DNA from: a virus
DNA length: 64,000 nucleotides
Direction: 5' to 3' (one strand)
IMG/VR virus record: IMGVR_UViG_3300009502_000026
Location: 30,091-94,090 of that record
Part shown: positions 31,904 to 57,647 of the stretch, piece by piece
Layout: the number at the start of each line of letters is the position of its first letter
Numbering within the stretch: the stretch's first letter is position 1
Made by a program: the position numbers and the translations under genes
Notes under the pieces: model-generated
The model's input: only the letters and a program-made list of their open reading frames with translations
What the model was told of the DNA's origin: nothing
The model's database searches: none

Positions 31904-32284
31904 TTATCTTGCCCTTGTGTAAGAGCCTAACATGATCTTACTGACTTCTTTCAAGTCCAATCCAGGATTCAGACTTCCCAGCCGTACCCAGATTCTCCCA
32001 TAGGCACCCTGAAGCCATCTCTTGAGGTCTTCATCGGAAACACCTAACCGCTTTGCAGTAGCTCCCGCAGATACCGCTAGAATCTCGGCTCTCTCGGCTG
32101 CAATGGCTGTCTTGTCACCACCCTTTGCCCGTGCCATCTCATCAGCTTGACCAAACATCCTAATAACCATGGCATCCAGCTTCTCTACCAAAAGATTACC
32201 TGCCTCTTTCAACATAGGGAGTAGGTGGGGTCGGAGAGAAGGCTCATTGTGGGCAAGTCGAATAATCTTGGAACGGAGAGTCAT
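31904..32284 (-). CDS. Tagged hypothetical protein
   Basis: MTLRSKIIRLAHNEPSLRPHLLPMLKEA; class B motif at 32307..32319. Confidence 0.78.
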   Translation of the reverse strand: MTLRSKIIRLAHNEPSLRPHLLPMLKEAGNLLVEKLDAMVIRMFGQADEMARAKGGDKTAIAAERAEILAVSAGATAKRLGVSDEDLKRWLQGAYGRIWVRLGSLNPGLDLKEVSKIMLGSYTRAR

Positions 32285-32894: not shown

Positions 32895-33746
32895 CTAACC
32901 TGTAGGTGTGGATTGCAGCAAATCCAACAGTCCGGTCGATTCTGTAAAAGGTCCGTAGTACCCTACATATTCATATCTAGGTTGGGTACTTCTCCCTTGT
33001 GAGGGAGTATGGTGCATCTCGGATTGCTTCAGCACATAGTCCCACAGTAAGTGCAATGTTCCGGGGTTGCACACCAAGACAGCAACCCCATCGGGTATCG
33101 CTTTATTCTTCACCCAATCATACATCAGCGACCAATCTTCCAAGTCCCACTTTGTTGACCCGTAGCCTGCTGTCTCTGGATAAGGAGAGTCCAGGTACAC
33201 CAAGTCCCCTGGACGGGACCTGCTAACCGTCTCTTTCCAATTACCCCGAACATACTCCTCACAACCCCAGCCGGAACCATAAGACTCCTGCAAGCGTCTT
33301 AGCAAGAAGTAGGGGTCCCCACCATTCCTGGCTGTGTTGATTGGGGTTGCAAAAGAACCGTCATCATTGGTCTGCCATCTATTCCCCCAAGCTGAATAAA
33401 GGCACACCATGAATCGAAGTGCTTTGTCCCTATCGGACAAACCATCAAAGTCTACATCTTTCAAGTCACGGTAGTACTGGATACGTTCAGGGGTGACATC
33501 TTCCAAAGTGGGTGCCTGCACCCTCCCCATAAGCCAATACTCTTGGGCTGACATCAACCAAGGATTCAGGTCACCTACAATCTGTGGGGTACTTGGAAAT
33601 AGACTGCGGACATAACGGGAAACTACCCCTGAACCCACAAAGGGTTCAATCCATCTACCAGACCCTCCCCAACCAAGGATGTAGTGCTCTAAGACAGACA
33701 GCATCCTAGTCTTTGCCCCGTTCCAGGGAAAGGGTGGGGGTTTCAT
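32895..33746 (-). CDS. Dam-like (alpha/D12 class) DNA adenine methyltransferase
   Basis: PFPWNGAK...IEPFVGSG...GDLNP...VYLDSPY. ATG 33746 is preferred as start. Confidence 0.85.
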   Translation of the reverse strand: MKPPPFPWNGAKTRMLSVLEHYILGWGGSGRWIEPFVGSGVVSRYVRSLFPSTPQIVGDLNPWLMSAQEYWLMGRVQAPTLEDVTPERIQYYRDLKDVDFDGLSDRDKALRFMVCLYSAWGNRWQTNDDGSFATPINTARNGGDPYFLLRRLQESYGSGWGCEEYVRGNWKETVSRSRPGDLVYLDSPYPETAGYGSTKWDLEDWSLMYDWVKNKAIPDGVAVLVCNPGTLHLLWDYVLKQSEMHHTPSQGRSTQPRYEYVGYYGPFTESTGLLDLLQSTPTG

Positions 33747-33777
33747 GTTCTGTACAGTACCCTGGAACCCCAAATAG

Positions 33778-33856: not shown

Positions 33857-34735
33857 TCAGCGGGTTACCGTGAGCCTTACGAGGCCCCTGGGGTTGTACG
33901 CCCCAATACCCAAATTCTCAAACACCGAGAAGCCGATGGTGCGTGCCTTGGGGTCGTCTGCGGAGAGGACCGTGAGCTCAGTGCGGACGGGAATCCGGCC
34001 GAACATCTCGGGTTCGCAGCAAACGTAGATCGTTCCAACCGGAACGAGCCTGGAAGTGATGATCTGGGCTCCCCAGAGAGTGGCCTGGAGGCCAGTCTTC
34101 AGGAGAGTTGCCTGACTCTCGATATCCAGGATGTCACGGCCGAACTTCCTCACGTCGGCGTAATCCCTTGCGTTCATGTAAACACGGGCAACCCGGAGGT
34201 CGTGCCGCTCGATGAGTGCAAAGGCATCAGCCAGAACCGCACCATTGACCGGAGCGATGACCGGCACGTCAGGGTTCGTCCCACCGGGGAGGGAATCGAA
34301 GCCGTTGACTGCGATGGCATCGAGAACTGCGAAGACTCTCTCGTCTTCCGCAGCCTGGATCTGGGCACGGGCAAGATCCTGAGCCCGCTCGATCAGGTCA
34401 AAGCGACGTTCTTTGATCTGGGTGAGAGGAATCTCAGGGTTCGAAGCGACTTCGAACAACGGAAAGATCACCCTACGGGGCTTGGTGATTGCGAGGATGT
34501 TCTCCCCTTCTTCACCTACCACGTATGCGGTCACATCCGGGTCCTTGTCGTAGATCGGGAGCGCACCATCAGGAAGCTGCTCAACCAAGAAGGTCTTGCG
34601 GCCGACTGCGGTGTAGTCACGACGAGTACGAAGGGGCTGGGTCATGGAAGCAGCAAGCTTCGCACGGCCAGTTGCCGTCTTCAGGTACTCAGAGATGATC
34701 TGCTGCTTGACAGCGTTGCTTACGGGGGTAGTCAT
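33857..34735 (-). CDS. Major capsid protein (HK97 fold)
   Basis: Follows protease, scaffold and decoration genes; strongly biased codons; motifs LPDGALPIYD, PLFEVASNPEI, IQAAEDERVF and FENLGIGAYNP. Confidence 0.88.
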   Translation of the reverse strand: MTTPVSNAVKQQIISEYLKTATGRAKLAASMTQPLRTRRDYTAVGRKTFLVEQLPDGALPIYDKDPDVTAYVVGEEGENILAITKPRRVIFPLFEVASNPEIPLTQIKERRFDLIERAQDLARAQIQAAEDERVFAVLDAIAVNGFDSLPGGTNPDVPVIAPVNGAVLADAFALIERHDLRVARVYMNARDYADVRKFGRDILDIESQATLLKTGLQATLWGAQIITSRLVPVGTIYVCCEPEMFGRIPVRTELTVLSADDPKARTIGFSVFENLGIGAYNPRGLVRLTVTR

Positions 34736-35704: not shown

Positions 35705-37024
35705 CTAGCGTCCGAAGACTTCACTCACGTCCGGGGCAGATTCCCAGAGCTTGGAAAGTTCGTCCACTTCGTTCTTGCCAGAAGCCGTCTTGGCAACCGC
35801 ACCCAGGGTCTTGGGACCTGTGGAAGGCTTGCGGGGCTGGGGACGGAGGGCTGCTTCCTTCTTGGAAGCATCCTTGTCCTCTTCGGGCTCGGGCTCGGGC
35901 TCGGTCTTCTCTTCGGGCTCTTCGGCTGCCTTCTTCTCCTCGGGCTCAGGCTCACCCTCGGGCTTCTCTTCACCGGCACACTTGGGGGTACCCATGCCGT
36001 ACAGAGCAAGAAGGTCGTCCTCAGTGGGCTCTACGTCCATGAGGCCCATCGGGTCGGCATCCACACCACAAGCTACAGGAGCCATCGGGGCTTCAATGCT
36101 TGCTACGGGAGCGGGGGGGGGAATAGGAGCCGCTACCGGGACGGGCTTCTCTTCCGTCATCTCGGCAAGCATCTGCTTCTCCTCTACCGTGAGGCCCTCA
36201 TCTTCAGTCTGGGGAGCCTGCTCTTCGGCCAGCATTGCTGCCAGCATCTTCTCTGCCGCTTCGTCCTCATCTACTGCCGCTGCCGCTGCCATTGGAGGAA
36301 CGGCAGGAGCCTCCCCACCACTAGTGGGGCCCATCGGTGCGTTCTGGTCACTCTTCTTGGAGGAGAAGATACCACTGGCAAAGGACTCACCCATGCCCAT
36401 CACTACATCCTGACGGGTAATGAGGCCATCCCCATCCGTGTCAAGAGCGGCGAAGATTTCAGGGGACCCTGCCCACTCATCAATGGAAATGACATCATCG
36501 AGGTTGATGTCATACACGTCGAAAGGGCCGTGTGCTTCCTTTGCTTCGGGCTTCTTCTCTTCGGGCTTGTCTTCGGACTTGTCTTCGGGCTTGTCATCAC
36601 CAGCAAGGAACGAAGTCGAGATCCGGGCCAATGCTGCCTGAATCTGACGCTCCGAGAGGTTCATGAAGTCAAGGGCCTGATCTTCAACCATCGAGGCAGT
36701 TGCCTTGCGGCCGAGCATAGACTGAGCCATCTGGATACACTTGGAAGCCTTGCGTTCCATTGCAGCCCGCATCTCCATGGCCGCACGCTTCGCTGCCGGA
36801 TGAGTCGGAGCTTCCTGGTAGCCGGGCATAGCCGGGGCTTCACTCTGCTTGTACGGTCCCTTGGTAGGGTCCTCTGCCCATGCAGACGTATCACCATTCT
36901 TGTAGTCATCCTTGCCGGGATCAGCAGGAGGAGCCGCTGGGTGAGTGGGCTTCTCCTGGTAACCGGGGATAGCAGGGGGATCAGAAGCGGTGCGGTCGGT
37001 CCAGGTAGTACGCTGACGGGTCAT
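35705..37024 (-). CDS. Putative scaffolding/head-core protein with an EF-hand pair
   Basis: Acidic, Pro/Ala-rich, between protease and MCP; loops DINLDDVISIDE and DTDGDGLITRQD. Confidence 0.75.
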   Translation of the reverse strand: MTRQRTTWTDRTASDPPAIPGYQEKPTHPAAPPADPGKDDYKNGDTSAWAEDPTKGPYKQSEAPAMPGYQEAPTHPAAKRAAMEMRAAMERKASKCIQMAQSMLGRKATASMVEDQALDFMNLSERQIQAALARISTSFLAGDDKPEDKSEDKPEEKKPEAKEAHGPFDVYDINLDDVISIDEWAGSPEIFAALDTDGDGLITRQDVVMGMGESFASGIFSSKKSDQNAPMGPTSGGEAPAVPPMAAAAAVDEDEAAEKMLAAMLAEEQAPQTEDEGLTVEEKQMLAEMTEEKPVPVAAPIPPPAPVASIEAPMAPVACGVDADPMGLMDVEPTEDDLLALYGMGTPKCAGEEKPEGEPEPEEKKAAEEPEEKTEPEPEPEEDKDASKKEAALRPQPRKPSTGPKTLGAVAKTASGKNEVDELSKLWESAPDVSEVFGR

Positions 37025-37108: not shown

Positions 37109-39868
37109 CTAAGATGTCGATTTCTCTCTCAGTGCCAAGAGTTTCGCCATCCTAACCAGAACTGTTGCCTCTTGGGTTGTGGGCTCTCGGCCCATCGTGA
37201 ACTCACAAGCCTGGAGGAAAGTAGTCAGGGACCGGAACCCGGTAGGAGACCCTACCATCCCTGCCACCTTGTACAGGTCACTAGCGATCTTGATACCCTG
37301 CGAATTGTTCAGGGCTTCTAGCTTGAAGATGAAGTCATTGTCAGAGCTTGCAGTTCTAACAAGTTTCTGAACCGTAGCCTTGTATTGGGCTACCTTGGGG
37401 GTACTTCCAGTGATCAGAGTTGCTTGGGGAACCAACTTAGGAGTATGCCCCACTACCTTCACACTAGCCTGACTCACCAAGGTATCGTTGGGGGCATCAG
37501 AAGAAGGAGCCGCAGGGTTAGTATTCCCATAGGGGGCAGACCCCCCATTCATGGCATCCTGGACTCTCTTCTTGACCCTATCCAGCATCTTCCCGTAAAG
37601 CTCATCTTCCATGTCCTTCAGAGGATCAGGCTTGGCTTCAGGGGCAGGTTCCGTAGCAGGAGCATCAACTCCCTCATCCTCAAACTCCTGTGCTACACAG
37701 GAGCTTGCTGCCTTAGCTAGACCCTCTGGGAGATTAGAGAAGTCATTCTTGGGCAAGGTCTTCGGGATACTGAACATTTTCTTCCCACTAGGAGAGAAAG
37801 CTGAATCCCCTACCACCTTGACAGGACCACGAGCTACGGCACCTGTAAAGGCTGGGATCTTCACCCAAGATCCTTCCACAAAGACCACACCCCCTGTTGC
37901 ATCCTCTGTCTCATGTCCACAGAGTTCCGCAATCTGATGCCTCTGCCCCATCTCATCAAAGAATATATTGCCCTTCAGGTGACGGATGCAGTTACAGAAC
38001 TCCGTCTCATCTGAAGCCCAATTCCCACACTTTGTACATGTCGTACTCTGTGTAGTGCAACCCATAGATAGGGAATCAAGAGCACCGGATTCAATGTCCT
38101 GGATGAGTTGAACATGCTTACGGTCATTAGCTACCAGGATGTCCACGTACACAGAGGGGCCAATGTCCCTGGCTACAGCATCAATGATCCGACCCTTGGA
38201 GAGCTCCTCAATCTGAACGTGCTCCACGAAACTGTGAGCACCGATCAAAGTAGGGTAGGACTTCAGGAGTACCGGACGAGACCACGCATCAGAGTTATGA
38301 ACAGCGATCCCCCCTGCGATATAGGAATTGTCCTCTTCTACCTCAAGGTTATGGACCTTGCCCTGGTACTCCACAACCTCTACAGATTCTACGATCTGGA
38401 GGCAGTAGCCATTCAAGAACCGGAGATCAGGTACCTTCTGGACCTCACCATGGGATTCCAGAAATGCAGCATAGGCACCCTCATATTTGGTACCTTCCAG
38501 TAGATCATTCAGATAACCAGCCCCGCAGGATAGAGTCCACCCCTGGGTCTCTTTGGTGGGGTCTGAAACCACAATCGGTTTACCGTCCACTACCAATCGT
38601 TTACGGCCCTCCAGGACAGCAAAGGTCCACTGGGGGGCCACCCCCAACCTATGGAGGATCAAACGTACTTGGTTGATCAGGGATACACTTGCGGAACTAC
38701 CCGTCAAGCGGGCATCCCCAATCTTGGAAGTAAAAAAACTCCCATCCCCCTCAAACCACCCCTTGACTACCTCTTCCTGTACCTGATGTGAGGCACGGAG
38801 GAGATCCTCATGCAAACTCTTGGTCTTTGACCCATCGCCCAACACCCAACGAGAGAAGAACTCCACCAGGGGCCTATTGGTCTTGGTCGTGACCACAATC
38901 CCCTTATCAGTCTGATGATACCTGATAGTGCTGTCTGCCCCAAACTCTGACTTGAGGAGAGAACATACAGTTTTCGCTAATGTATTCTCCTCACTCAGGT
39001 TGAAGGCAAAGCACACCCCTACCCTCTCATTGTCCTTACGGGAGTCCAGTTCATAGTAGCCTTCCGCAAGAAAGAGCCCGAGAAGCCTAGCTTGGCCCGG
39101 TGTCAACCCCACAGAGACATCCCCATCCAGGATGGGTGTGGCTACAAAATCCCAATGATCCCTCACCTGACCAACAGGTACGAATTCTCCCCTCTTCTCA
39201 GTCAGAAGATCACGTTTAGGGATTCGCTTGCTGTAATAGCAAGCCCCACTACAGTAGAATCTGTCCAGAAGGTGGGAAATACACTTGCTGGCATGGTGGA
39301 TATTGGACCCGCACTGAATACAGGCTTCCTGGGGGCGGAACACGAAGAATGGGTGTTCCCGGGTTACATATAGTCTCTCGTTACACCCACGGTACTTCAA
39401 CCCCAGAAGTGCCCCATCAACCTGATGGCTATAGGTCTGGAGAACTTTACGTGCCCTTCCTGTATGAGTCAGAACCTCATCCCCCACCTGTACCTGCTCA
39501 ATGGGCTTAACCGTCCCATCTGACATTGTAATGGATGTGCCAGGAATGAAGCAGTTATTGTTGATCCATTTTTCGCAGTCAGCTTTGACCCGGAAGTCAG
39601 CATACTTCCGGTTGATCTTCTGACCATCAAACTGAATCATGCCCAGCTTGGTACCGGGAGTAGCAACCGTATCTACCGAAGCTACCAGAGTTGCGTGAGT
39701 GAGAAGGTACTTGGAAGGGTCAAATGACTCCCCAAGAATATCAGAAGCTTGCTTCACCAAGTCCCTGTCCAACCGGGTAGACCCGGATGCTACACGGACA
39801 TCATCCCATACTCCATCCCGGAGCTTGGGAACGGTGACCAGAGCTCTTGCAGTTCTTAGGAAGGCCAT
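37109..39868 (-). CDS. Prohead maturation protease containing an intein
   Basis: Spliced NNN|SDAW...SFVEH...KGRIIDA...SLSMGC...EGSWV..PA matches the herpes/HK97-like protease motif order. Confidence 0.82.
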   Translation of the reverse strand: MAFLRTARALVTVPKLRDGVWDDVRVASGSTRLDRDLVKQASDILGESFDPSKYLLTHATLVASVDTVATPGTKLGMIQFDGQKINRKYADFRVKADCEKWINNNCFIPGTSITMSDGTVKPIEQVQVGDEVLTHTGRARKVLQTYSHQVDGALLGLKYRGCNERLYVTREHPFFVFRPQEACIQCGSNIHHASKCISHLLDRFYCSGACYYSKRIPKRDLLTEKRGEFVPVGQVRDHWDFVATPILDGDVSVGLTPGQARLLGLFLAEGYYELDSRKDNERVGVCFAFNLSEENTLAKTVCSLLKSEFGADSTIRYHQTDKGIVVTTKTNRPLVEFFSRWVLGDGSKTKSLHEDLLRASHQVQEEVVKGWFEGDGSFFTSKIGDARLTGSSASVSLINQVRLILHRLGVAPQWTFAVLEGRKRLVVDGKPIVVSDPTKETQGWTLSCGAGYLNDLLEGTKYEGAYAAFLESHGEVQKVPDLRFLNGYCLQIVESVEVVEYQGKVHNLEVEEDNSYIAGGIAVHNSDAWSRPVLLKSYPTLIGAHSFVEHVQIEELSKGRIIDAVARDIGPSVYVDILVANDRKHVQLIQDIESGALDSLSMGCTTQSTTCTKCGNWASDETEFCNCIRHLKGNIFFDEMGQRHQIAELCGHETEDATGGVVFVEGSWVKIPAFTGAVARGPVKVVGDSAFSPSGKKMFSIPKTLPKNDFSNLPEGLAKAASSCVAQEFEDEGVDAPATEPAPEAKPDPLKDMEDELYGKMLDRVKKRVQDAMNGGSAPYGNTNPAAPSSDAPNDTLVSQASVKVVGHTPKLVPQATLITGSTPKVAQYKATVQKLVRTASSDNDFIFKLEALNNSQGIKIASDLYKVAGMVGSPTGFRSLTTFLQACEFTMGREPTTQEATVLVRMAKLLALREKSTS
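38294..39553 (-). mobile_element. Intein (420 aa) with LAGLIDADG endonuclease in the protease
   Basis: CFIPGT...VTREHPF...LLGLFLAEG...KGWFEGDG...VHNLEV...AVHN|S. Confidence 0.92.
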
Positions 39869-39872
39869 GGAC

Positions 39873-40418
39873 TTACCCCAAGATCAGTTCAGACGGACGT
39901 ATAAGGAATAGGCAAGTAGGGCAACACAGGAGCCTCTCACTCTTGCCGTTCTGCCTTGTGTACACCGTCTTCCGAAGGATGGGCTTTTCCTGGCACCGGG
40001 GGCAGAAGAAACCCTCGGCTTCAGATTCGTCTCTAGTAGCCCGGTACCTACGGTCTGGGGCACCCCAGTAGAGTGCTCGGACGTGCCTGGAAGCTACCTT
40101 CTGGACTGACTCCCGGAGAGGAATCGGATACGGACCCCCTGGAACAGACACAGAGGTCCGGTTTCCCGGCACACTGTCCACTAGGCTGTCCACATAGGGG
40201 TCTGTATCGTTGGGGTCTACCTGAAGGTCTTCCACTGGCATTCGAGAGGCCCCGTGGGGGAACTGGACATCCACCATCCCAATGGCAGGGAACACAGCTA
40301 CAACTGTGCCCCCTTGGGCAAAGTTACCACCAATGGTAGGAGCTACACGGTCCCCTACATGGAACCCAGTAGCCCTAGCCTGATAGTCCACATAGGATGT
40401 TGCAGTACGATCTTGCAC
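39873..40418 (-). CDS. Hypothetical protein with an SH3-like N-terminus and a C-terminal zinc ribbon
   Basis: FHVGDRV...GTVVAV; CPRC...CCPTC. Confidence 0.7.
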   Translation of the reverse strand: MQDRTATSYVDYQARATGFHVGDRVAPTIGGNFAQGGTVVAVFPAIGMVDVQFPHGASRMPVEDLQVDPNDTDPYVDSLVDSVPGNRTSVSVPGGPYPIPLRESVQKVASRHVRALYWGAPDRRYRATRDESEAEGFFCPRCQEKPILRKTVYTRQNGKSERLLCCPTCLFLIRPSELILG

Positions 40419-41145: not shown

Positions 41146-44100
41146 TCACCAATCAGCTAACTCCGGTTCCGTAGAAAGGCTGAAAGCATCCTCATCGTCC
41201 TCATAATCCCCTTCTACTAACCCATGCACAAGGGATCGAGCCATATTAGGTTCTTCATACCCATCCTTCTCTATAGCCCTGTTGATGGCTCTGATCCTCT
41301 CCAACTCAAAAAGGTCATTGTCCTCTTTCGTAGGAACCTCACCCTTCTTGAGCTTTTCAAGACGCTCCTCATACTTCTTCTGGTAATCAGGGTCCTTATT
41401 CAGAATATCACTTTGCTCCGCTGCTACTTCTTCCGGTGTTTTCTTTGCTCTCTCTTTCTTAGGAGTCATGCTCTTCACAGCCGCAGAGAGAACACCTGCA
41501 TCATTCATCCAAGCATTCCAGAACATTGACCGAACACTGAGTTGCTGTTCAGGATTCAGAGTACCAGACCTAAACATCTTCAAAAGCTTATTGTATGGGT
41601 GATTCCCTTTTCCTGAATAAGAACCTTCAATGATAGCAGCTAGAGTGTCATCATCAATACCACCATCCTCACCTAGGTCTCTTAGAAACTCCCTGCTTGG
41701 GCCTACCCCTGCATTGATGATATCAGTGCCGCTATCCAGAATTTCCCTCCCAAACTCACCACCCATACCCTCATTTTTACCATCCCCATGAAGGGTGCGA
41801 ACCAATGCAATTGTATTTTGTGATGGGGCAGGCAGTTCACGGATGTCAGGTTGATTCTCTCCAGCTATGATCGAAGCTAAGTATACATCTCCTAAATGTG
41901 CCTTCAATTTCTGTATCTGTTCTTGTGCCTTGGGGTCATCTTGGTCCAATTTGGAGATGCCACTCCTAATACTTTCAATGGCTTTAGTCCTGATCTTCTT
42001 ACCTTCTTCAGGACTCTTCCCATCCTTACCGTGAATCATGTCACGGAAGTTTCTACTCCTGGGAGTCTTGACCGTCGGGCCCTTCCACTTCTTATCCGCA
42101 CCTTTTGGCTTAGAATCTTCCGGGAAAGCCTGATCGGACTTGGGCTTCTCTCCCTTGGGCTTCTCCCCTTCAGATTTCTCAGGCTCCTTCGGTGCTTCAC
42201 CCTCTGTAGGTGCCTTCGGCTCCTCTCCAGGAGTCCCTGTAGCTGGAGTTTTCCCCTTGGGAGTCCCAGGCTCGGGTTCTGGCTTAGGCTTAGGCTTAGG
42301 TTCTGTCTCTGTCGGAGGAGTCTCAGACTTGGGTTCTGGCTTAGGTTCCGGCTTAGGCTCGGGTTCTGGCTCTGGCTCCTTCTTAGGTGCCTTCCCCTTG
42401 TGAGCCTTCTCTGCCTTCAGTCTAGCCTTCTCAGCATTCTTAAGCTCCTTCTCCATACCTTGGAGGTCATCAGTTGAGTCACTGAGAGTGTAAGCATCCT
42501 CAGTGAATTCCTCCATAGTCACTGGTGGGTCCAAGCTATCAACAAGGACTTTGACTTCAGCTTCTATCTTTGCTCGTTTCTTTGGGTCGGAGGTTTCAAT
42601 AAACCTCTCAGCTACATCAGCAAGATCACTCTTGATGCTCTTGTACTTACTTTCGAGTATGTTTACCTTGTCTTGGAGGGTCTTATGATTGCCCTGGAGT
42701 TCCTCTACTTTCTTGGTAGCCTTTTCCAGAACTGACCCAGTATCTTCATCATCTTCACTAGCATCCCCACTACCCGTGGCGAATGCCTTAGCTTCATCCT
42801 TGGAGTCAAAGGTCTTGGCTGTGCCCTCAGAGTTGATACCCCTCCAGTTCTTCTCCTCAGTCTGCCAATAGTCACCAGACTTATGCTCAGGGGCATCTTT
42901 GATACCCACTACTTTTGGGGGAGGGGATACTTCCCCAAGTTTTACCAAGAACTTATGTGCCACCCTCTTGAAATTCAGAGTCAAGTCTGGGTCGGTCTCA
43001 GCAGACTGCCCCCCAAGGTCACCATCTCGATCAGGGTCTACTCGATGATCCCGTAGGTCTTGCCGAGGGGGCTTCTTCTTAGGATCAGGTTTGATGAGGT
43101 CTTTCGCTGCCTCATCTTCACGTTCCCCATCACTCTTAGTGGCAACTCTAAAGACTGCATCTGCATCTGACAGGTAACCCCCGTCAATGAGGGACCTGTA
43201 CAAGGCTTTCAGCATCAGAGCCTTGTTTCTCTCTGTCAGATAGGGACTAACATCCTTCCAAGTGTCATTAGTGAGAAGAATGTACCTGATGAACTCCTGA
43301 CCCTTGAAGTGATCTGCAAATTTGGGAGCCATCTCCAATGCCTTATCCACAAATTCCTGCATATATGCACGAACTTCATGGGGGTCATTGTAGTATTTCT
43401 CTGGGTCAATGTTCCTGGGAACTTCCCGGGTAGTAGCCCTGTTCTTCTGTTGTATATCCAGAACGTGGGTCATCTCATGTAAGAGCATCTGTCGGAAGTC
43501 CCTAGCCATGAACTCGACCGACTCCCGAAGTGCCTTCGTTGTGTACCTCCCATTCAGGTTCAAGACGATAGCTGGACGGGAACCCATTGACCCCTTGCCC
43601 CCCGATAGAAGGAGTTGTGGACTGTCACTCACAACGCTGGTGACCCTGAGTACTGGAACCAGGATGTTCTTCCCCTCAACCCCTAGGGCATCTGAGAATC
43701 TGTCCAGGTCTTTCTGAAGTACAGCATGATTGGGTGCCAACTGGCCGAGGGGCTCATCCTGGGGATGACGCCTTCCCAATTCTCGCTTCAAGTCCACGAT
43801 CAAATCCTGGACTTCGGCATCAATGAGACTCTTGTCAATCGGGATGGGCCTGGAAGCGATCTTGAACGACTTAGGGACTGCCCCATCCTTCAGATAAGTG
43901 TCTTCCATACCGGGCACTAGATACTGGGACCTGAGCGTAGCAGGCTCATGTCCTACAACCTCTGCCGTCTCTTTTAGTGCCTTCAGGAACTCATCCTTCA
44001 GGAGCTTCTTACGTTCCTTGGGATCAGTGGGTAGAGCCTTACCATTCTTCCGTGCCTCACCAAGCTTCTGACGCATGGTATCATTGGCATGGAACCCACG

Positions 44101-45183
44101 GATGTCCTTGGCAGTAATATCAAATGGCTTCAGGTAGGAGTTGACATGCTCTGCCGTTAGGTCAAAGTCTTCAACCTGAAGAACCTTGTCATTCGGCTTC
44201 TTGCCCTCAGTGTACTCCTTCAGGAGTTTGACAACTGCCCCAGTGTCTACTGTCTTTTCATGCTTGACACCGGATTTCCCCACGTATTTGATAACAGCCT
44301 TTCCCTTGGGGAAAGTGACATGTTTCACTTTCCAGCCTGTGACTCCAAAATGACCCTCACTAGCTGACTCATCATTTCCGATTCTCTCACAAGTTTCATC
44401 CATGAGAGCTACAGCGAGAGCCGTGAGCTTGGTCTCCTCACTACCAGAACTCAGGTCTTTACGCACCTTGGCACGAACTTCGGAGATGCCCTTACGAAGC
44501 TTCTCCACCTGTTCAGCCTTCTCCTTGTTCCTCTTTGCTACCTGCCTAGGGCCGTATTCATAGTGGACGTTCCCCTCGGAGTCCTTCTTCTTGTCTATGT
44601 ACTTGCCCCACTTGTCCAGGAACAGACCCGCAATCTTCACTGGGGACGCTATCCTTGGGGTCCACAACTGGGAGGCTACTCGACCTTCGGGAGTAGTATG
44701 AAGTTTCACTCTTGGGATGATATCCGGGAAACCCCAGATTTCCATCTCATCAAAACTCCAAGAACCACCCGGTACTTCTCCCTTGTATTCCTCAGTCAAC
44801 CCTGTGAGGTACTCCAGAGTGACATGGGGACGGTAGATCAGAGGGAAACTATCAACCACTTCAAAGTTTGCATCAAGGAGTGCCTGACGGAGATTCCACT
44901 TAAGGGCAGAAAGATCCTTGTCCATCTGGACAAGATCAACAGCTACTCTTCTTTCCTTATCAGGATTGACAAAGTACTCCATTCCTATCAGCGTAGCTGT
45001 GACAGGTCCACGGAACTGCGTGAACGTAGCCTGAACGATCTTCAGGAACTCAGTCCTACGTCCGACCGGAATCTCCCCTACATACAGAAAGGTGACATGA
45101 GGGGGAGAATCGTCCTCTTCTCCAAGGGGAGGGAACCTGGAAGCCATCTCATCCGGGAGAGGTATGAATAGTCCAACACCCAT
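41146..45183 (-). CDS. Polyprotein: 2H phosphoesterase (Acb1/LigT-like) + DNA topoisomerase IB + zincin + acidic low-complexity region
   Basis: PHVTF/PHVTL pair; TopIB catalytic set ERIGN, GKSG, KDIR, VGH, SQYL; LLHEMTH...HEVRAY. Confidence 0.85.
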   Translation of the reverse strand: MGVGLFIPLPDEMASRFPPLGEEDDSPPHVTFLYVGEIPVGRRTEFLKIVQATFTQFRGPVTATLIGMEYFVNPDKERRVAVDLVQMDKDLSALKWNLRQALLDANFEVVDSFPLIYRPHVTLEYLTGLTEEYKGEVPGGSWSFDEMEIWGFPDIIPRVKLHTTPEGRVASQLWTPRIASPVKIAGLFLDKWGKYIDKKKDSEGNVHYEYGPRQVAKRNKEKAEQVEKLRKGISEVRAKVRKDLSSGSEETKLTALAVALMDETCERIGNDESASEGHFGVTGWKVKHVTFPKGKAVIKYVGKSGVKHEKTVDTGAVVKLLKEYTEGKKPNDKVLQVEDFDLTAEHVNSYLKPFDITAKDIRGFHANDTMRQKLGEARKNGKALPTDPKERKKLLKDEFLKALKETAEVVGHEPATLRSQYLVPGMEDTYLKDGAVPKSFKIASRPIPIDKSLIDAEVQDLIVDLKRELGRRHPQDEPLGQLAPNHAVLQKDLDRFSDALGVEGKNILVPVLRVTSVVSDSPQLLLSGGKGSMGSRPAIVLNLNGRYTTKALRESVEFMARDFRQMLLHEMTHVLDIQQKNRATTREVPRNIDPEKYYNDPHEVRAYMQEFVDKALEMAPKFADHFKGQEFIRYILLTNDTWKDVSPYLTERNKALMLKALYRSLIDGGYLSDADAVFRVATKSDGEREDEAAKDLIKPDPKKKPPRQDLRDHRVDPDRDGDLGGQSAETDPDLTLNFKRVAHKFLVKLGEVSPPPKVVGIKDAPEHKSGDYWQTEEKNWRGINSEGTAKTFDSKDEAKAFATGSGDASEDDEDTGSVLEKATKKVEELQGNHKTLQDKVNILESKYKSIKSDLADVAERFIETSDPKKRAKIEAEVKVLVDSLDPPVTMEEFTEDAYTLSDSTDDLQGMEKELKNAEKARLKAEKAHKGKAPKKEPEPEPEPKPEPKPEPKSETPPTETEPKPKPKPEPEPGTPKGKTPATGTPGEEPKAPTEGEAPKEPEKSEGEKPKGEKPKSDQAFPEDSKPKGADKKWKGPTVKTPRSRNFRDMIHGKDGKSPEEGKKIRTKAIESIRSGISKLDQDDPKAQEQIQKLKAHLGDVYLASIIAGENQPDIRELPAPSQNTIALVRTLHGDGKNEGMGGEFGREILDSGTDIINAGVGPSREFLRDLGEDGGIDDDTLAAIIEGSYSGKGNHPYNKLLKMFRSGTLNPEQQLSVRSMFWNAWMNDAGVLSAAVKSMTPKKERAKKTPEEVAAEQSDILNKDPDYQKKYEERLEKLKKGEVPTKEDNDLFELERIRAINRAIEKDGYEEPNMARSLVHGLVEGDYEDDEDAFSLSTEPELADW

Positions 45184-45184
45184 T

Positions 45185-46114
45185 TTAACCCCCTACCGGG
45201 TCTGATGGAGATGATAGGCAATACCCATTTTCATCTACATCACAAAGCTCGATACCATCATCTTCAGTGGCATCCACCCAAACCATGTGGACAACATTTT
45301 GAACCACGGCATCCAGGTCAATGAAGTCATGGTCCGGTTCTGGACCAGAGTCATACATAGAGATGAAAGCAAACTGTGTCCGTTGATCTTCCGGGAGTCC
45401 CCGTTCTGCCACAGGAACATTCCAGTCCTCAAACTCAGGGATAGCCTTCAGGCTGGTATCTACCAGGGAGTAAAGTTCCCTTCGGTCGTTGAACCAGAGA
45501 ATCTCCTGCCTACCTATTGTCTCTGCCTTGGGACGGAGAATATCTGAAAGCTTCTGGATTACAACTTCCAGGTTCTCTGGGAAGTCATAGGGAGACTGAC
45601 GAATACCCCACAAAGCTACGGCTCCTGTGATATGATTCAGGAACACCATAACCTTTTCCCGCTCGGCCTTGGCTACCCGTGCCATGTGGGCATCTGCCAC
45701 AAGGCTAGCCAAGGTGAGCTTCATAGATCCGACCTTCAACCCCGCTGCGGGTGATCCCTCCAGGAATACCATTGGGAGCAAGCCCTTCCTGAAGAGTCTC
45801 ACTCGTTGAGCAATGTACCTGGGGGACCTCATCCCCACTTCCCACTTGATCCCTAAGTTCCTGATAGCCTCTGCCAACGGGAAAATGGTCTTCCATTTCC
45901 CTGTCTTGTCCAGGGAATTCCCTTCCTCAATGAAGGCTTCGATAGTGATAAAATGCTTACGAATACAGTCCCTACAGTGCTTTCCAGGGTCATTCAGGTG
46001 GTCCTCCAAGAGAACCATCTGTTTGCAAGCTTCCCTGAAACAGAACTCAGGATTGTGTATCGGCAGAAGAGCCGGTAAGTTGGTTGGGTCGAGGATACAG
46101 GAATGTTTCCGCAT
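45185..46114 (-). CDS. Two-part hypothetical protein with a Cys/His-rich N-terminal domain
   Basis: REACKQMVLLEDHL....CRDCIRKHF; class B motif at 46140..46152. Confidence 0.65.
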   Translation of the reverse strand: MRKHSCILDPTNLPALLPIHNPEFCFREACKQMVLLEDHLNDPGKHCRDCIRKHFITIEAFIEEGNSLDKTGKWKTIFPLAEAIRNLGIKWEVGMRSPRYIAQRVRLFRKGLLPMVFLEGSPAAGLKVGSMKLTLASLVADAHMARVAKAEREKVMVFLNHITGAVALWGIRQSPYDFPENLEVVIQKLSDILRPKAETIGRQEILWFNDRRELYSLVDTSLKAIPEFEDWNVPVAERGLPEDQRTQFAFISMYDSGPEPDHDFIDLDAVVQNVVHMVWVDATEDDGIELCDVDENGYCLSSPSDPVGG

Positions 46115-46155: not shown

Positions 46156-49100
46156 CTACCCGAATCTTCCACCACCCTCATCAGGCTTCTTGTACTTGAG
46201 CTTCAAGTACTCAGCGATCCTCTCCACTACATCAGAATTCTCGGCAAGGTTCCTACCGGCTTCAGTGTAGATACCCCGGAGAACTTCATTGAACGTGGAG
46301 TCATTCAGGGTAAACACATCCCGCATGAGCTTCTCGTTCGTAGCCGTGGGGTCAATGTTCAGGAGTTCCAGGATGATATCAATATCCAGAGAACCCTTCT
46401 GATAGAGGTTGAACAAAGCATCGAAGGTATCAGCATTGTCCCGAAGGGCAAGACGGGTGAAGGTAAGGGTTGGGACAACCACTTCTTCATTCCCATCCTC
46501 ATCGAGCTCAATGAACCCCATGCGCTTACACATGGGAGCCAGCATGTTCTGTTCAACCATCTCCTGGAGGATTTCCCGCAGAAGCATGAACCGGGTGTTG
46601 ATAACCTCCAGATTGATCCTGTCACCGGAGTAGCTGGACTCCCCAGACAAGAGAGATTCAGTGACCCCCAGACCGGCATACAACTGCCTATCTGTCTGGT
46701 CATACTCAGTCGAGAGTTCCAGGAGACGCTGACTAGACCCCATCTCCTCCCAATTGACCTGGAAGTTGGTGATGATGGAGTAGTCCGGGTCCATCAGGGC
46801 CATATCCACCTGATCCCGGAGGTTCTCTACATCTGCCACATCCATATCTTCGGCATAGACCAGCCGAATAGGAGTCATGTGGCGAGAAGCAATCTGTGTC
46901 TGGGACTGACGGAGCTTATCCCGATAGACCAGGGTACGAATGCAGTTATGGACTACGATCCCACCGGCTACTAGAGTCTCATCATCCTCTACATCAAAGG
47001 AATAGACCGGACCCTGATAGTGGAACCGTTCCACTTTATCAAGGGTATGTGTTGTCCAACGGTCATCCTTCTTGAAGTACCCAAGTCTGATCTTCTCTTT
47101 GTAGCCCTGAAGGTAGGGCTTCGTGGCACTTGACCACACAGAGAAACTAGACATCCGGGCCATTGTAATAGGTGAATGAGTACGGAGCACATAAGTAGTG
47201 AAAGCCCCGTAGGAATAGGTCTTGTCCCTAACACGGGATACCCTAGGGTGTGCTTTGGGGAACTTTGCACGCCCCCCTATAGGCTTCCCCCCCACTACCT
47301 TCTTCACCTTACGGGAACTCTTACGGCTCTTCCACCGATCTACCGAAAGGTTCAGTCTCTTACACACCAGATACAACTGCGAAGTCAAAATTGCATCATG
47401 GAGATGAAGCTCCATAAGCTTCTTCCCAATGGTTTCTACCCTACCGCTACTGTCAAGAATACCCCCCAAAAGTGCCAGAAGGTACTTCTCTCGGACCCCA
47501 AACATCCAGTCAGGAAGTATCTTGGACTTACCATACTGGAAGTGTTCGTGAATCCAACGAGCCAGTAGGGCATCCGGCAACTTGAGAGTAGTGTGTGCCC
47601 CAGAGTCTTCAATCTCTATGGACTCTTCCCCAAAGACATTCTGGAGAGCTTCCTTGAGCTTGAGGACACAATGGGAGTGCTTCTTGTCTATCCACCACTC
47701 AGTTACATACTGGGCTGGTGAAGAATAGGTGGGGAGTTTCACCTTCCCCTTAGCTACCCATGCACCCAGGATGTAGCAGAGGTCTTCGGTCATCTTGAAG
47801 GAGACAGTATGAGGGGCAACTGCATGTCCCCAGGCAAAGGCACCAGGAGCCGGTAGGAACTCAGGATAGGCAAGGCCCCCTGGGGAAGCCCTGCACATCG
47901 AGTTCTCCCAATGGTCTGCTAGATCGAACCGGAGGGGCACCTTACGGTCATGTGTACGGATATGACTCTCCCGTACCTTGTCCCCAGCCTTGATGTCCCC
48001 AGCCAGGACTTCTTCTTCCTGACCCTCTGCGTTGATCCTTATGATCTTGTGATCTTTGGTGAAGCAGATAGGGTCACGGAGAGAGATAGAATGGATTGTG
48101 ATACCCACAACCTCTTCATCTACATTCCGAGTGCCCTTAGAAGCTTTACGAAAGCGACCTTTCCCTGTCAGGAGAAGATCAGTGTTCACATCCACTTGCT
48201 CAACCGGGATATTGACAACCAAACCCTGCCGATTGACCGTGATAGGTGTTCCAGGAAGAATACAGCGTTCCAGGACCGAATGGCCCCTGGGCTCATACTG
48301 TGACTTCTTCCTTGCCATGTAAAACACAAAACTCCCGGATTCGGGGTCTGTGTTCAGAGGAATGTTTTCCCCTTTCCGAATGGAATCCACAACCATTGAG
48401 GGCATGGAATCCACGATCCGTTGGGCCTGGGGGTCTCCAGCTTCGGCCTTGTGGATGATGTCTTTGGTCTTGCTATCAGGAACCAGTTCAATGAGTTTCT
48501 GGTCAGTGAAAGGATAGCTCTCCATGTGAATCTGTTCCGGGGGCAACACCCGAATTGCAGACCAACCATGGTAGTTTCTCTTCAACCACTTGACCGCACG
48601 CTCATTGGCATCCTGTCGATCTTGCCACTCTTCCGCAACACTTCCGTCTTCCTGAAGTACCCTGAATATCTCCTGAGTGATATCCTGGGGCATGTCTTCA
48701 GAAGCATCCTCACAGAAGATGAATACCTCACCCAACAGGTTGTAGTCATGGACGATTTCGATGAGACGATGAAGAAGTCCAATCTTCTTCGCCCACTTTG
48801 CACAAAAATTCAAGGATCTTTGTGCAATGTCACGATTCTTAGCCTTGGGCATACCAAGGCGAACCTTAGACAGAGGAAGTTCTGTCTGTAGGTCCAGAGC
48901 TTGGCCTACGAACGGATCAGCCCCGTAGAAGAACCGGAAATAGTTCCTCTTTTCATCGAGGGACTGAGGGAGTTCCAGGAAGTCTGTGGAGAGCTCAGGG
49001 CTGTAGAAATTGCCCCCAGAACCCTGGACAGAACCACTCACTGAAGGATAAGCCACCTTGGATCGAAGAAACCCTGTGGCAATCTTCGGGGGCTTCCCTA

Positions 49101-49176
49101 CCTTCACACCCTTCCGGGGAGGTACTTTCCCAACAGTTACCGCTTCAGTCTTATCAGTCTTATCAGCCATAGTCAC
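46156..49176 (-). CDS. Portal protein containing an intein
   Basis: Located after the terminase. About 566 aa after splicing, with RFFY..DPFVGQALDL and PRGHSVLER|CIRTLVYRDKLRQ. Confidence 0.85.
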   Translation of the reverse strand: MTMADKTDKTEAVTVGKVPPRKGVKVGKPPKIATGFLRSKVAYPSVSGSVQGSGGNFYSPELSTDFLELPQSLDEKRNYFRFFYGADPFVGQALDLQTELPLSKVRLGMPKAKNRDIAQRSLNFCAKWAKKIGLLHRLIEIVHDYNLLGEVFIFCEDASEDMPQDITQEIFRVLQEDGSVAEEWQDRQDANERAVKWLKRNYHGWSAIRVLPPEQIHMESYPFTDQKLIELVPDSKTKDIIHKAEAGDPQAQRIVDSMPSMVVDSIRKGENIPLNTDPESGSFVFYMARKKSQYEPRGHSVLERCILPGTPITVNRQGLVVNIPVEQVDVNTDLLLTGKGRFRKASKGTRNVDEEVVGITIHSISLRDPICFTKDHKIIRINAEGQEEEVLAGDIKAGDKVRESHIRTHDRKVPLRFDLADHWENSMCRASPGGLAYPEFLPAPGAFAWGHAVAPHTVSFKMTEDLCYILGAWVAKGKVKLPTYSSPAQYVTEWWIDKKHSHCVLKLKEALQNVFGEESIEIEDSGAHTTLKLPDALLARWIHEHFQYGKSKILPDWMFGVREKYLLALLGGILDSSGRVETIGKKLMELHLHDAILTSQLYLVCKRLNLSVDRWKSRKSSRKVKKVVGGKPIGGRAKFPKAHPRVSRVRDKTYSYGAFTTYVLRTHSPITMARMSSFSVWSSATKPYLQGYKEKIRLGYFKKDDRWTTHTLDKVERFHYQGPVYSFDVEDDETLVAGGIVVHNCIRTLVYRDKLRQSQTQIASRHMTPIRLVYAEDMDVADVENLRDQVDMALMDPDYSIITNFQVNWEEMGSSQRLLELSTEYDQTDRQLYAGLGVTESLLSGESSYSGDRINLEVINTRFMLLREILQEMVEQNMLAPMCKRMGFIELDEDGNEEVVVPTLTFTRLALRDNADTFDALFNLYQKGSLDIDIILELLNIDPTATNEKLMRDVFTLNDSTFNEVLRGIYTEAGRNLAENSDVVERIAEYLKLKYKKPDEGGGRFG
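46945..48264 (-). mobile_element. Intein (440 aa) in the portal, with degenerate LAGLIDADG motifs
   Basis: CILPGT...FTKDHKI...VYSFDV...VVHN|C. Confidence 0.92.
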
Positions 49177-49527: not shown

Positions 49528-49788
49528 TTACCACCGTAGAGATGGGGTCAGATGTCCATATTTGATGGCAATAGTAATGATCTTCTTGAGAAGAAGGATG
49601 TCCTCAATAGAACCTTCAAAGACCCCTTCCCACGATCCCCCAGCCTTGACAAAGACCCGTGATACCTTGTCATACTCAGTAGGAATATGAACCACCTTGT
49701 TTGGATGGACAGATTCAAGGATCTTACGGATGATCCTATGATCAGACCTGACAGGACTGGTGGGAGTGAGGCTTGCTGTGCGATTCAT
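49528..49788 (-). CDS. Hypothetical protein
   Basis: ATGA overlap with the terL stop; begins MNRTAS. Confidence 0.6.
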   Translation of the reverse strand: MNRTASLTPTSPVRSDHRIIRKILESVHPNKVVHIPTEYDKVSRVFVKAGGSWEGVFEGSIEDILLLKKIITIAIKYGHLTPSLRW

Positions 49789-52700
49789 CTTCCACGCTTC
49801 CTACCTGCCAAGCCACCCGTACCCCCCATTCCAGACCAGCCACTCCTACCACTAGGGACACCCATTGCAGGAAGTCCACGGGGAGCCATTCGAGACTCAT
49901 GGCTCCCACTAGCAAGAATTCGTTTCCGAGCCTTCATTGCACCAGAGGGGGTACGGGGCACCTGACCATTGTCCATGAACCGAGAGGTTCCTCCTGCATG
50001 TGTGATATAGGATGGTTTTCCAAGTACGTTGGATGCAGCCCACACCATTCTAATCAGAGCATCAGAACGGTCATCATGCTTCCCCTCCATATTGGGGGCT
50101 TCCACCGTAACTACATACTTACTATGATACTCTGCCTGAAGCTCCATGAGTTCCACAATGTAATCACAATGGTTGGCACCATCAGGAATCGGAAAATCAT
50201 ACATGACCAGCTTATGGTCATACATCATGTCCTTGAAGTTCTGGAACATCTGGGACGTGAGTATCTTTGTCATCTGTGTAGCCTTCATCTGCCGAAGGCC
50301 ACGCTTGGCAAGTGCCTGTTCCAGGGGGATACCTGCCCACTGGTCAAAGATACCTTCATGGATCAGGAACTTCTTGGACAGTTCTGCAATCCAGTCAGCT
50401 ACAGCATCGAAGTCCAGCCGCTCGACGTTGATGTACTTACCTTCTCCAGCCTTGATCTGGTCTACAAGATCGACTATGATCTTTCTCTCAGCGAGGTCAA
50501 TGTGTCCAAGTGCAATTGCCGTCGCATCACCCGACAGACCCAAGTCCAATCCAAGGAAGTAGGATTGCCTGGGAACCCCGTAATACTTCGGGCGAGCCCC
50601 AGGGTCCACGCAATCCATCAGGTCCTTGTCACGCTCAATCCAACCACGGGTCCTGTCAGTGAACTCCCCCCCGTACTCAGTGAAGAACACTGAAGGGTCT
50701 TTCAGGTAGTGCTTTTCAAACTCCTCGGCAGGAATCGTAGGATTGACTTCCCAAGTTGGTGCCTGGATGCACACCATGTTCTTGGAAGCCTTGCCACCCT
50801 TCATCCCAATCTGAAATAGCTTGTAGAAAAGACCTTGCTTTCCTAGGGGAGATGAAATCGAGATGATCCGGCCCTCTACTGGACCAATAGGAACTCTCTT
50901 GTCACTAGCCTTCTTGGGAGAGAAAGCTGAAGTAGACGGGGTAACCGCATTGTAAACGGACTCTGCGGAAGACTGCCCTTTGTCTGTGAAGTGGGCAATC
51001 TCGTCCAGAATCACGACTAGGTTACCGGCACCACGAAGACCCTTGGCTACACAGGATCGGAAGGTGACCTTAACCGAGGCCCTTGCATTAGGATTCTCAA
51101 TATACCTACCGTACTTTTCAATGTCCTTGGGTGTCTGGAAACGAGCATAGGACATGGTATTGTTGGCTGTATAAGGTACGAAGAACTCACACCCCCTGAA
51201 ATGCCCTGAAGTTTCCTGATAGAGAAGTCCTGCCTGATCCTTGTCCGTAGCAACCGAGATGATCTGGATAGGGTTGCTGGAAGGTAGCCCGTAGTATTGA
51301 TGTGGGTCACTCTTCAGGATCAACTTGTAAGTCTCATAAGCTGCGATAATGGCACCTATGGCCGTATTGTGGTTGGTCATCCCCCCAGCTACAAAACTCT
51401 CCCCTTCTGGGACGGTCAGATCATATACCCTAGCCTCACCTGAATTTACGGTTTCTACGGGATCGTAGAAATAGTTGGCCGTCTGAAGTACCTCAAAATG
51501 ACGTATCACATCTGGGTCTGCCCCTAAACTCTGAGCCATTGCCAGTGTGGGGCCAAGCCTGGGGTATGTCATGGACTCCTTGGAACTCGGTTTGATGGTG
51601 TTCCCCAAAGCCGTCCGCAACAAACTACGATGCCAACCTGGACGTTTCCCATGCCCCCCACGGTTACAGGTCACAGATTGAAGTAGGGCATCACACCAGG
51701 ATCGTTGATGGGGAATGTTTTCAGCATCCGATCCTTCTTTGGAAGTCCTAGCCAAAGATGCCAACACTGGGTCATTTTTCTTGGACGACCTAAATCCAAT
51801 CTCGTCCATGAACTTCTGACGGGAGGCCGTACCTCTCACGTACACGTTGTAGTAGAATCGCTTGTACTTCTTATTCCACTTTGCCCGTCGAGTACTCACA
51901 ACCCCGAAGTTCAGGAGAAGTATTTGAACTTCCCGTGCAAGTTGCTCCGATGCCGAAGAGAACGATACAGCCAACCCCCCCTTCTCTGAGCAACCATCAG
52001 TCTCAAACAATCCCTGTAGGAACCTCTGCACAACAATCTTAGGGGACCTCATGATGGTCCACGGGACGTGCTTGGTATTCCTTGTAATATCCCATGCGAA
52101 CCCCAGCTTGTGTAGAAACTTCCTCACATGAGTGCTGAAGAAGTCAATGGAGCCAGTGTTGTTGGTCCGCTTGTCCATACGGACGTTGAAAGATCCGAAT
52201 AGACTGGTGTACAGCGCCTTCAGTTCCTCCCAGGTCTCTGGATGCTCTACAGTCACAGACACCGCATTGTGCTTCGTCCATGAACCACCCCCGACCAAGT
52301 ACCCCAGGAAAAGTCCCCATTCTTCAGTAAGCTCAGTTGGGAGAGTCACCCTGGGGTCTTCACATCCAGTATGGAGGGACTCCAACGGTACCCTCTGAAC
52401 AGGCCAAAGGTCAGATGTGCGATGAATAGCGATCTGGTCACCAAGATGGATATGGTCCAGGTATCTCCATTGGATGGTGCCACCTTCGGACATCACCCTA
52501 ACTCGGTGACCAGCGGTACCCTCAAGTTCATACCCACTACGGGTCACAAACTTGATTGTAGGTTTCACCCCTCCATTGTAGAAGAATGCAGAATCAGACC
52601 TGACACCATTCTCCTGGACCACACCAATTTCCAAAGGCTGGTACTCAGGACCCTTGGAATCTCCGAGGTCCTGAATGGGGATTATGCCCTGGTTGGTAAG

Positions 52701-57230: not shown

Positions 57231-57647
57231 TCAAACCAGAGCCATCTTGAGACGCAGCTTGGCAAGGTCATAGAACTTCTTGAGGAACTCCTGAACTTCC
57301 TTGTCGGAAGACATCTTGGCAGACTTACGGAAGGTGTCTGCCAAAGTCTGGAGAGTGCCCCGCACTACTTCGGCAAACTGGGCATCCTGGGCTGCCTTAG
57401 CATCCACAAATGCCTTCTCATCCTTCTCAGAATCCCCAGTACCTTCGGGAGTGAAACCCATGTCATCCACACCGGCAGGCTTCTGGTTAGCCATATTGAC
57501 AAGTTCAGTCAAAGCCGCAATCAGAAGCTTTGCCTGTGTCACACCAACACCAGCCGTCTTCTCAGACGAAGCCAGGATAGGGAGAAGGTCCCCCCGGAAC
57601 TCCGGGTGTTCGTGAGCCAGCTTGATAACTTTACCTTTGAGAGACAT
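57231..57647 (-). CDS. Tagged hypothetical protein
   Basis: MSLKGKVIKLAHEHPEFRGDLLPILASSEKTA. Confidence 0.78.
   Translation of the reverse strand: MSLKGKVIKLAHEHPEFRGDLLPILASSEKTAGVGVTQAKLLIAALTELVNMANQKPAGVDDMGFTPEGTGDSEKDEKAFVDAKAAQDAQFAEVVRGTLQTLADTFRKSAKMSSDKEVQEFLKKFYDLAKLRLKMALV

Follow-up and report, generated by a model that had tools for sequence, protein, structure and literature searches.

A 64,000-nucleotide stretch of the virus record IMGVR_UViG_3300009502_000026 in IMG/VR (positions 30,091 to 94,090; hereafter the window) encodes, between its portal and head maturation protease genes, a 1345-residue protein, P0001, in which a 2H phosphoesterase domain, a type IB topoisomerase (TopIB) and a zincin-like HExxH domain stand in front of a conserved post-portal module. 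On balance we lean towards reading P0001 as a variable polyvalent post-portal protein, from a clade of phage-G-related very large phages, whose enzyme cassettes would be cut apart by the prohead protease and ejected with the DNA. Two thirds of a 94-kb record, at its 3' side, make up the window; CheckV puts that record at 22% complete, and the DNA comes from a very large phage of which it covers only a part.

The reading frame of P0001 runs uninterrupted for 1345 codons at 41146..45183 on the minus strand, on which all features below lie unless stated otherwise, and the plus strand is closed there. A preliminary description of this DNA, made from the letters of the sequence, had named this frame as a gene, and it is real, with the correction that it lies on the minus strand. 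An independent assembly from a second sample contains a full-length copy, P0002, with 84% identity overall, so the long frame is not an accident of assembly.

A first search returned more than 400 related proteins, across which TopIB is the constant element. Its partners, surveyed among the best 120, are 2H, PolyA_pol-type nucleotidyltransferase, PAP2, HAD_SAK_1 ('Swiss Army Knife RNA repair'), DUF5661, cREC (a cyclic-phosphate-processing domain), RNA ligase, NUDIX, superoxide dismutase and GNAT domains, and the order of the 2H, HExxH, TopIB and conserved modules varies between relatives. Scanning IMG/VR gave 153 confirmed loci on contigs of up to 618 kb, 80 of which were fetched. From terminase to major head protein (MCP), most of these 80 have their genes in the order seen in the window, which bears out the earlier idea that P0001 is a head-module protein with several enzymes; identity of the MCP is 80-94%, and the length of the TopIB protein varies across related loci from 280 to 2834 residues. 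With at least two unrelated effector domains per chain that are shuffled among relatives, and with genes that lie together with those for portal and terminase, the P0001 family is a large TopIB-centred branch of the polyvalent proteins (PMC5512222).

Three enzyme-like domains

The TopIB domain (residues ~191-440, 43864..44613) matches Pfam PF01028 (Topoisom_I) over residues 217-416 with an E-value of 3.5e-28 and a score of 99 bits against a cut-off of 23.7. Its best solved relative is variola TopIB (2h7f, E 5e-13), with whose Arg-Lys-Arg-His-Tyr set the residues R267, K303, R362, H412 and Y421 align, and all five are invariant in 20 relatives. Homology over the catalytic core is thus found together with the Arg-Lys-Arg-His residues and the nucleophilic Tyr, as the preliminary description had claimed, and the domain is predicted to be catalytically complete and of the poxvirus type. 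The poxvirus enzymes (variola and vaccinia; 2h7f, 1a41) are the closest solved sequence match and share all five catalytic residues; unlike them, the phage TopIB is one domain of a 1345-residue head protein, the packaging of which we only infer.

Residues 1-165 (44689..45183) form a 2H phosphoesterase domain, with the duplicated alpha/beta lobe of that superfamily and with the two HxT motifs that had been read from the letters, both of them HVT (residues 29-31 and 120-122). In 20 relatives H29, T31 and H120 never vary and T122 hardly does, and all four are invariant in alignment A3. Against Pfam PF13563 the P0001 domain scores 15.8 bits, below the cut-off of 27; the corresponding domains of P0003, P0057 and P0047, which are 38-52% identical to it, score 42.5, 40.7 and 50.8 bits, all above that cut-off. 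An AlphaFold model built from a 21-sequence alignment has a predicted local distance difference test (pLDDT) value above 90 for residues 1-160, and Foldseek ranks Deinococcus CPDase (5h7e), E. coli LigT/ThpR and archaeal and Thermus '2'-5' RNA ligase' proteins at the top (E 2e-7 to 4e-6). The same ranking, LigT/ThpR-type proteins first, is given by the sequence profile. These RNA 2',3'-cyclic phosphodiesterases (5h7e, 4qak/5ldm, 1vdx, 1iuh) are the best fold and profile matches and share the two HxT motifs, but the P0001 domain is only 17-20% identical to them and is fused into a phage structural-module protein.

The third domain (residues 445-674, 43162..43851) carries an HEMTH motif at residues 569-573. 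Word-based searches with the HExxH region and with the conserved module found 3 and 4 proteins only; it took a full HMMER scan to recover the HExxH family, which comprises 347 representative clusters; many members are stand-alone proteins of ~240 residues that span the whole domain. Across 57 sequences of the family the sole invariant polar residues are those of the HExxH motif (H569, E570 and H573) and a Glu 30 residues downstream (E603). The AF2 model (mean pLDDT 85.6, predicted template modelling score 0.80) runs from an N-terminal helix through a beta-sheet to the HExxH helix and the Glu helix, which is the order of elements in zincin-like peptidases, and the zinc-motif residues lie in helices 125-151 and 177-198, consistent with a gluzincin motif. 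No Pfam family matches the domain, the Pfam metallopeptidases included. Among predicted viral structures, uncharacterised phage proteins come closest, and weak matches to IrrE, M48, SprT and polyvalent proteins rank behind them. We call the domain zincin-like on its motif and modelled topology, and to this extent the earlier zincin assignment holds.

The post-portal module and the C-terminal half

Directly behind the HExxH domain and its junction lies a module (residues 682-812, 42748..43140) that was absent from the preliminary description. In P0001 it has the form TKSxxEREDE..PKKKPPRxDLR..DLxLNFKRVAxxFL..GDYWQT, and the consensus is TKSxxEREDE..PKKKPPRxDLR..D-L-x-L-N-[FY]-K-R-V-A-x-x-[FW]-L..GD-[YV]-WQT. 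The module is found in 115 of 121 TopIB relatives and in 67 ORFs (open reading frames) of the fetched loci. Pfam and PHROG scans gave no match for residues 682-1345 or for stand-alone proteins of this core module; specifically, neither database detects MuF on P0001 or on the stand-alone proteins, and only the post-portal position is shared with MuF proteins.

The arrangement differs in a sister clade (loci L018, L037, L040, L053, L055, L059, L060, L062, L071-L073 and L081), where a TopIB of ~350 residues stands alone between terminase and portal, and the ORF next after the portal, a separate one, has the conserved module as its N-terminus (M-x-x-x-[GAS]-TK[STD]...). Because the sister clade has the module as a separate post-portal ORF, the module is, on this comparison of genes, the presumed ancestral post-portal protein, in front of which the enzymes would have been added in the P0001 clade.

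The module is followed by a charged region (residues 813-904) and a P/E/K low-complexity linker (residues ~905-1010), both delimited by composition (together 42154..42747), and by a C-terminal region with an acidic end (residues ~1011-1345, 41146..42153). The linker contains 24 P, 22 E and 20 K per 100 residues and has ~335 residues downstream of it. The repeat that had been described as a PEPK-repeat acidic tail is therefore present but internal; the C-terminus itself is acidic, as stated. P0002 is 99-100% identical to P0001 over the first 900 residues and only 56% identical over the C-terminal ~320 (residues 1020-1345), which suggests a recent exchange by recombination at the low-complexity linker. 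It is also the only clear homologue of the C-terminal region, three others being marginal (22-30% identity, E about 1e-3 to 1e-4). A hidden Markov model (HMM) of the region finds P0001 and P0002 alone, and the ESM Atlas returned nothing for residues 1030-1345. The 214-residue ORF downstream of P0001 (40451-41095) belongs to a family that, in L002, L006, L007, L030, L036, L039, L048, L076 and L078, is the polyprotein's own C-terminal part.

Boundary motifs, processing and cargo

Five motifs at the domain boundaries of P0001, listed in the preliminary description as resembling cleavage sites, are all present: GRVA|S (168-171), PRIA|S (177-180), VKIA|G (183-186), FKIA|S (441-444) and FRVA|T (679-682), the bar marking the putative cut. 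P0001 has no other match to [RK][IV]A[STG], and every one of the five lies at a domain boundary; shuffled versions of P0001 contain 0.27 matches on average, and at least five were found in 0 of 20,000 shuffles. The first three stand in a flexible linker (residues 166-190, 44614..44688; pLDDT below 50 for residues 167-195) and are unstructured in the model, with pLDDT of 29-36 over residues 168-186. VKIA|G is at the same time part of [RK]VAxRY, an element conserved at the N-terminus of the TopIB module. The other two occupy low-confidence flanks of the HExxH domain, the one being the TopIB/HExxH junction K441-I-A|S444 (43852..43863) and the other ending the junction of residues 675-681 with F-R-V-A|T682 (43141..43161).

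The same element recurs throughout the family. Among 208 distinct family proteins, with a 28-residue window, the relaxed form [KR][VIT][AG][STAG] is found at 36-68% of internal domain boundaries compared with 5.7% of random windows, a 6-12 times enrichment of the K/R-x-A|S/T element. The junction at the start of the conserved module reads [KR]x[AG]|TK[ST] in 76 of 76 relatives, and their equivalent of the TopIB/HExxH junction reads ..DGTVxKSLK[VT][AG]|TKT. Ahead of the HExxH domain, [RK][VIT]A[AST] is found nearly always, and it takes the form [RK][VIT]A[AST]|RPI in stand-alone and fused proteins alike; in the stand-alone family the sequence reads [RK][VIT]A[AST]|RPIxxDK and the element lies only 4-30 residues from the start codon.

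Beyond the P0001 family, the element appears in two further proteins of the head module, scaffold and protease. Orthologues of P0122, the acidic scaffold-like protein (35705-37024), which itself has K/R-x-A|S sites near both ends, carry a conserved site 11-16 residues from the N-terminus (..[RK]xA|SAPPAxPGY) and a second one 25-30 residues from the C-terminus, just ahead of a nearly invariant LSKLWESAPDVS peptide. Orthologues of the head maturation protease have a conserved VR[TV]A|SSD ~80 residues from the C-terminus and WDNVRVA|S ~25 from the N-terminus. Genome-wide, the relaxed motif has 51 matches against 26.9 +/- 5.0 in shuffles, about twice as many, and the longer form [RK][IV][AS]xx[FWY][LIVM] has 14 against 1.0 +/- 1.0. 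Two candidate sites were discarded: an N-terminal K-T-A|T in the MCP, where many orthologues read KTPQ, and a site at residue 31 of the portal, which is absent from orthologues and where the start codon is uncertain. Prohead-protease codes elsewhere are L/I-x-E in T4 (gp21) and S/A/G-x-E in phiKZ-like phages, and the A|S preference recalls the assemblin sites of herpesviruses. The distribution of the motif is the pattern expected of a prohead-protease code and favours cutting by the prohead protease.

Our proposal for P0001 would then run as follows. The TKS..KKKPPR core and the charged tail would place the protein in the prohead, with three cassettes N-terminal to the core: a LigT/ThpR-like 2H domain, a poxvirus-type TopIB and an HExxH...E metallopeptidase-like domain. 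During head maturation the prohead protease would cut the K/R-[VIT]-A|S/T/G sites in the linkers, leaving freed enzymes inside the capsid that depart with the DNA at infection. The enzyme cargo is, judged from the sequences, probably loaded into the capsid. There TopIB might relax or handle the roughly half-megabase genome at ejection, early transcription or packaging, and the 2H domain might heal 2',3'-cyclic-phosphate RNA ends made by host defence RNases, with degradation of cyclic oligonucleotides less likely. For the HExxH domain we suppose a role as cargo with a host protein as its target, and not one as processor of the polyprotein.

What the 2H domain does bears on the first of the alternatives. 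It had been taken for an Acb1-type enzyme against the cyclic oligonucleotide-based antiphage signalling system (CBASS), one that destroys cyclic-oligonucleotide immune signals and is delivered pre-made with the genome, and Acb1 (7t26/7t27) is likewise a phage protein of the 2H superfamily. That label is not sustained: the domain is no closer to Acb1 than to other 2H families, the sequence profile, even with E-values up to 10 allowed, has no match to Acb1, and it ranks LigT/ThpR-type proteins first, as Foldseek does. Moreover, the 2H-bearing polyproteins of relatives also hold HAD_SAK_1, PAP2 and PolyA_pol/CCA-type nucleotidyltransferase domains, and other family members pair cREC with RNA ligase. 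We consider the anti-CBASS role unlikely, if worth keeping in sight, and healing of RNA 2',3'-cyclic-phosphate ends the better-supported guess. A similarly unlikely course, to our minds, is that P0001 is packaged or used as one uncut chain, in the manner of the phage N4 virion RNA polymerase, with the K/R-V-A elements serving as structural N-terminal pieces. In stand-alone TopIB, HExxH and core-module proteins the element is indeed retained within a few residues of the start codon, as a structural element would be, the MCP match is not conserved, and the N4 polymerase and some plasmid polyvalent proteins travel uncut (Iyer et al., PMC5512222). Set against this, four of the five elements lie in low-pLDDT, predicted-flexible stretches outside folded domains, sequence similarity between modules stops at the Ala, and the same code is found at the termini of scaffold and protease, where cleavage during maturation is the rule in tailed phages.

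Who would do the cutting is a separate matter. Autoprocessing, in which the HExxH domain rather than the prohead protease cuts at the K-x-A|S/T sites, would agree with the [RK][VIT]A[AST] directly ahead of the domain in nearly all of ~100 family members and with the role that Iyer et al. 2017 (PMC5512222) predicted for polyvalent metallopeptidase domains. We think it improbable: of five complete related genomes, four have TopIB polyproteins but no such domain, and only ~20 of ~200 local relatives carry it, while the junctions are conserved regardless. The A|S-type sites at the scaffold ends also fit a serine protease like the assemblin of herpesviruses. Because only one in five complete genomes encodes the HExxH domain and the junctions are conserved throughout, the domain is more likely cargo than processing enzyme, and the head protease, which is universal, is the more economical processor. 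Just as little probability attaches, in our estimate, to P0001 being no capsid cargo at all but a late cytoplasmic factor, with TopIB easing torsional stress for terminase and portal while a genome of ~0.5 Mb is packaged and the other domains working in the cell. The sister clade's stand-alone TopIB gene of ~350 residues, directly between the large terminase (TerL) and the portal, speaks for such a factor; in the P0001 clade, on the contrary, TopIB is fused to the post-portal module among small head proteins, protease and scaffold, shares its boundary motifs with scaffold and protease, and has adjoining and fused domains of an anti-defence or repair kind that would be useful at entry.

Several results also weigh against the reading that we favour, of packaged cassettes freed by the prohead protease. 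The [RK]VAxRY element is present in every TopIB module, stand-alone ones included, and could be structural and not a cutting site; and because the MCP match is not conserved, the motif by itself is no predictor of cleavage. The 'protease' is identified by one PHROG match (E 1.2e-7) and by synteny. The HExxH model has no significant match among solved PDB structures, so that this part of the earlier zincin claim gained no support, and none of the RNA-repair partner domains is in P0001 itself. Finally, the cultured relatives by MCP, Tunturiibacter phage Tunturi_5 (47% identity) and Bacillus phage G (38%), have neither TopIB nor the conserved module by HMM in their 40-kb head regions or by tblastn in the whole records. 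The HExxH HMM likewise found nothing in the head regions of either phage, and the 2H HMM gave a weak match (E 0.002) in the virion module of Tunturi_5 (L082), to gp321, a protein of 1362 residues annotated 'NUDIX hydrolase'.

Three known systems come close to what we propose. In T4 and in phiKZ/SPN3US (for SPN3US, PMC10052503) the prohead protease cuts internal head proteins, and the cargo is ejected with the DNA. Those phages resemble our reading of P0001 in having a short cleavage code on scaffold, protease and packaged enzymes; they differ in that the code proposed here ends in Ala, nearer to the A|S of herpesvirus assemblin, and in that the cargo is strung together in one polyprotein. MuF/SPP1 gp7 minor head proteins are likewise encoded directly after the portal and have variable enzymes fused to a conserved head-incorporation part, which in P0001 is a different, unannotated module, without detected MuF. 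The polyvalent proteins of Iyer et al. 2017 (PMC5512222) are like P0001 in carrying several enzymatic domains per chain in shuffled order, 2H and HExxH metallopeptidase domains among them, in being encoded near portal and terminase, and in their predicted delivery with the DNA. Unlike them, the P0001 family has a constant TopIB and a TKS..KKKPPR anchor instead of MuF, its boundaries bear a K/R-x-A|S/T code common to scaffold and protease, and the HExxH domain of P0001 falls outside the Pfam metallopeptidase families.

TopIB is not discussed in PMC5512222, where 'topoisomerase' occurs only in the title of a reference, and Iyer et al. 2021 name phage TopIB only as a replication/topology gene of some jumbo phages. 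In the literature that we searched, no packaged phage TopIB and no TopIB-centred polyvalent branch is described. As a general idea, polyvalent injected proteins are in the literature; what this family adds is no new principle but a further branch of them, new, large and centred on TopIB, whose boundary code is defined. A wider formulation, which we put forward tentatively and hold to be somewhat less likely than not, is that megaphages like phage G have a cassette system in which TopIB and RNA-repair or anti-defence enzymes are joined to a post-portal module, loaded into the prohead and cut at K/R-x-A|S/T sites, by a code that also processes scaffold and protease. If true, it would provide the first case of a bacterial virus that packages a type IB topoisomerase, and very large phages would have TopIB and enzymes of RNA repair or anti-defence pre-loaded for the opening seconds of an infection, in parallel to the TopIB of poxviruses, which is packaged in the virion. 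From sequence alone, the code would also allow a prediction of which proteins uncultured megaphages package and inject, and three abundant unannotated families, the HExxH...E family with its 347 clusters, the TKS..KKKPPR module and the head protease, would be placed in a context that can be tested.

The head-module neighbourhood

All genes around P0001 share its strand. Upstream lie the genes for the large terminase (49785-53078), a 106-residue ORF between terminase and portal, the portal (46156-49176; phrog_16240, E 1.9e-29) and a 309-residue ORF with a Tad5 domain (45185-46114; Pfam PF25190, E 1.2e-31). P0001 is followed by the 214-residue ORF already mentioned, a 181-residue ORF of the head module (39873-40418), the head maturation protease (37109-39868; phrog_18299), which is the candidate processing enzyme, the scaffold-like P0122, a 237-residue ORF and the MCP (33857-34735; phrog_2522, E 1.7e-48). 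The PHROG matches of portal and protease confirm the location between these two genes that had been given for P0001. An intein-free orthologue of the protease had no Pfam or PDB sequence match.

The stop codon TAA of the Tad5-like ORF lies one base ahead of the P0001 ATG, so that the two are translationally coupled. Promoter-like words occur ahead of the Tad5-like ORF and right after P0001, a placement that fits a two-gene unit. The Tad5-like domain is syntenic in ~15 related loci and is part of the polyprotein itself in L006, L016 and L030. Tad5, a type I Thoeris inhibitor from phages, is described as binding the Thoeris TIR protein ThsB and blocking it (PMC13728456, PMC13402655).

Inteins interrupt the terminase, the portal and the head protease. 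The portal has an Intein_splicing match, terminase and protease have Intein_splicing or Hint plus LAGLIDADG matches, and the orthologues of all three in related contigs are ~440 residues shorter. In phage G (L083) the head maturation protease gp19 has K[VI]A|S matches at residues 9, 248 and 274 of 301. The scaffold-like protein has an EF-hand-like DTDGDGLITRQD loop, and its nearly invariant C-terminal LSKLWESAPDVSxxFG stands behind K-[TV]-A|S in a layout like that of the herpesvirus scaffold M-site. The 181-residue ORF family has a conserved RVAxAFVKKA at about residues 100-165, which in the window copy reads KVASRHV. Directly after the MCP gene lies a DNA methyltransferase gene (32895-33773; phrog_56, E 2e-24).

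A leader of ~27 residues, (M)xLRSKxIRLAHxxPxLRxxLLPxLKxA, which P0001 does not have, is found on several unrelated ORFs of the window and inside one of them. Its copies lie at 26239-26319, 26836-26916, 29509-29592, 31322-31405, 32201-32284, 57552-57647 and 60075-60155, and on the plus strand at 360-443 and 832-915. The same leader heads the stand-alone HExxH proteins P0231 and P0255 from other samples.

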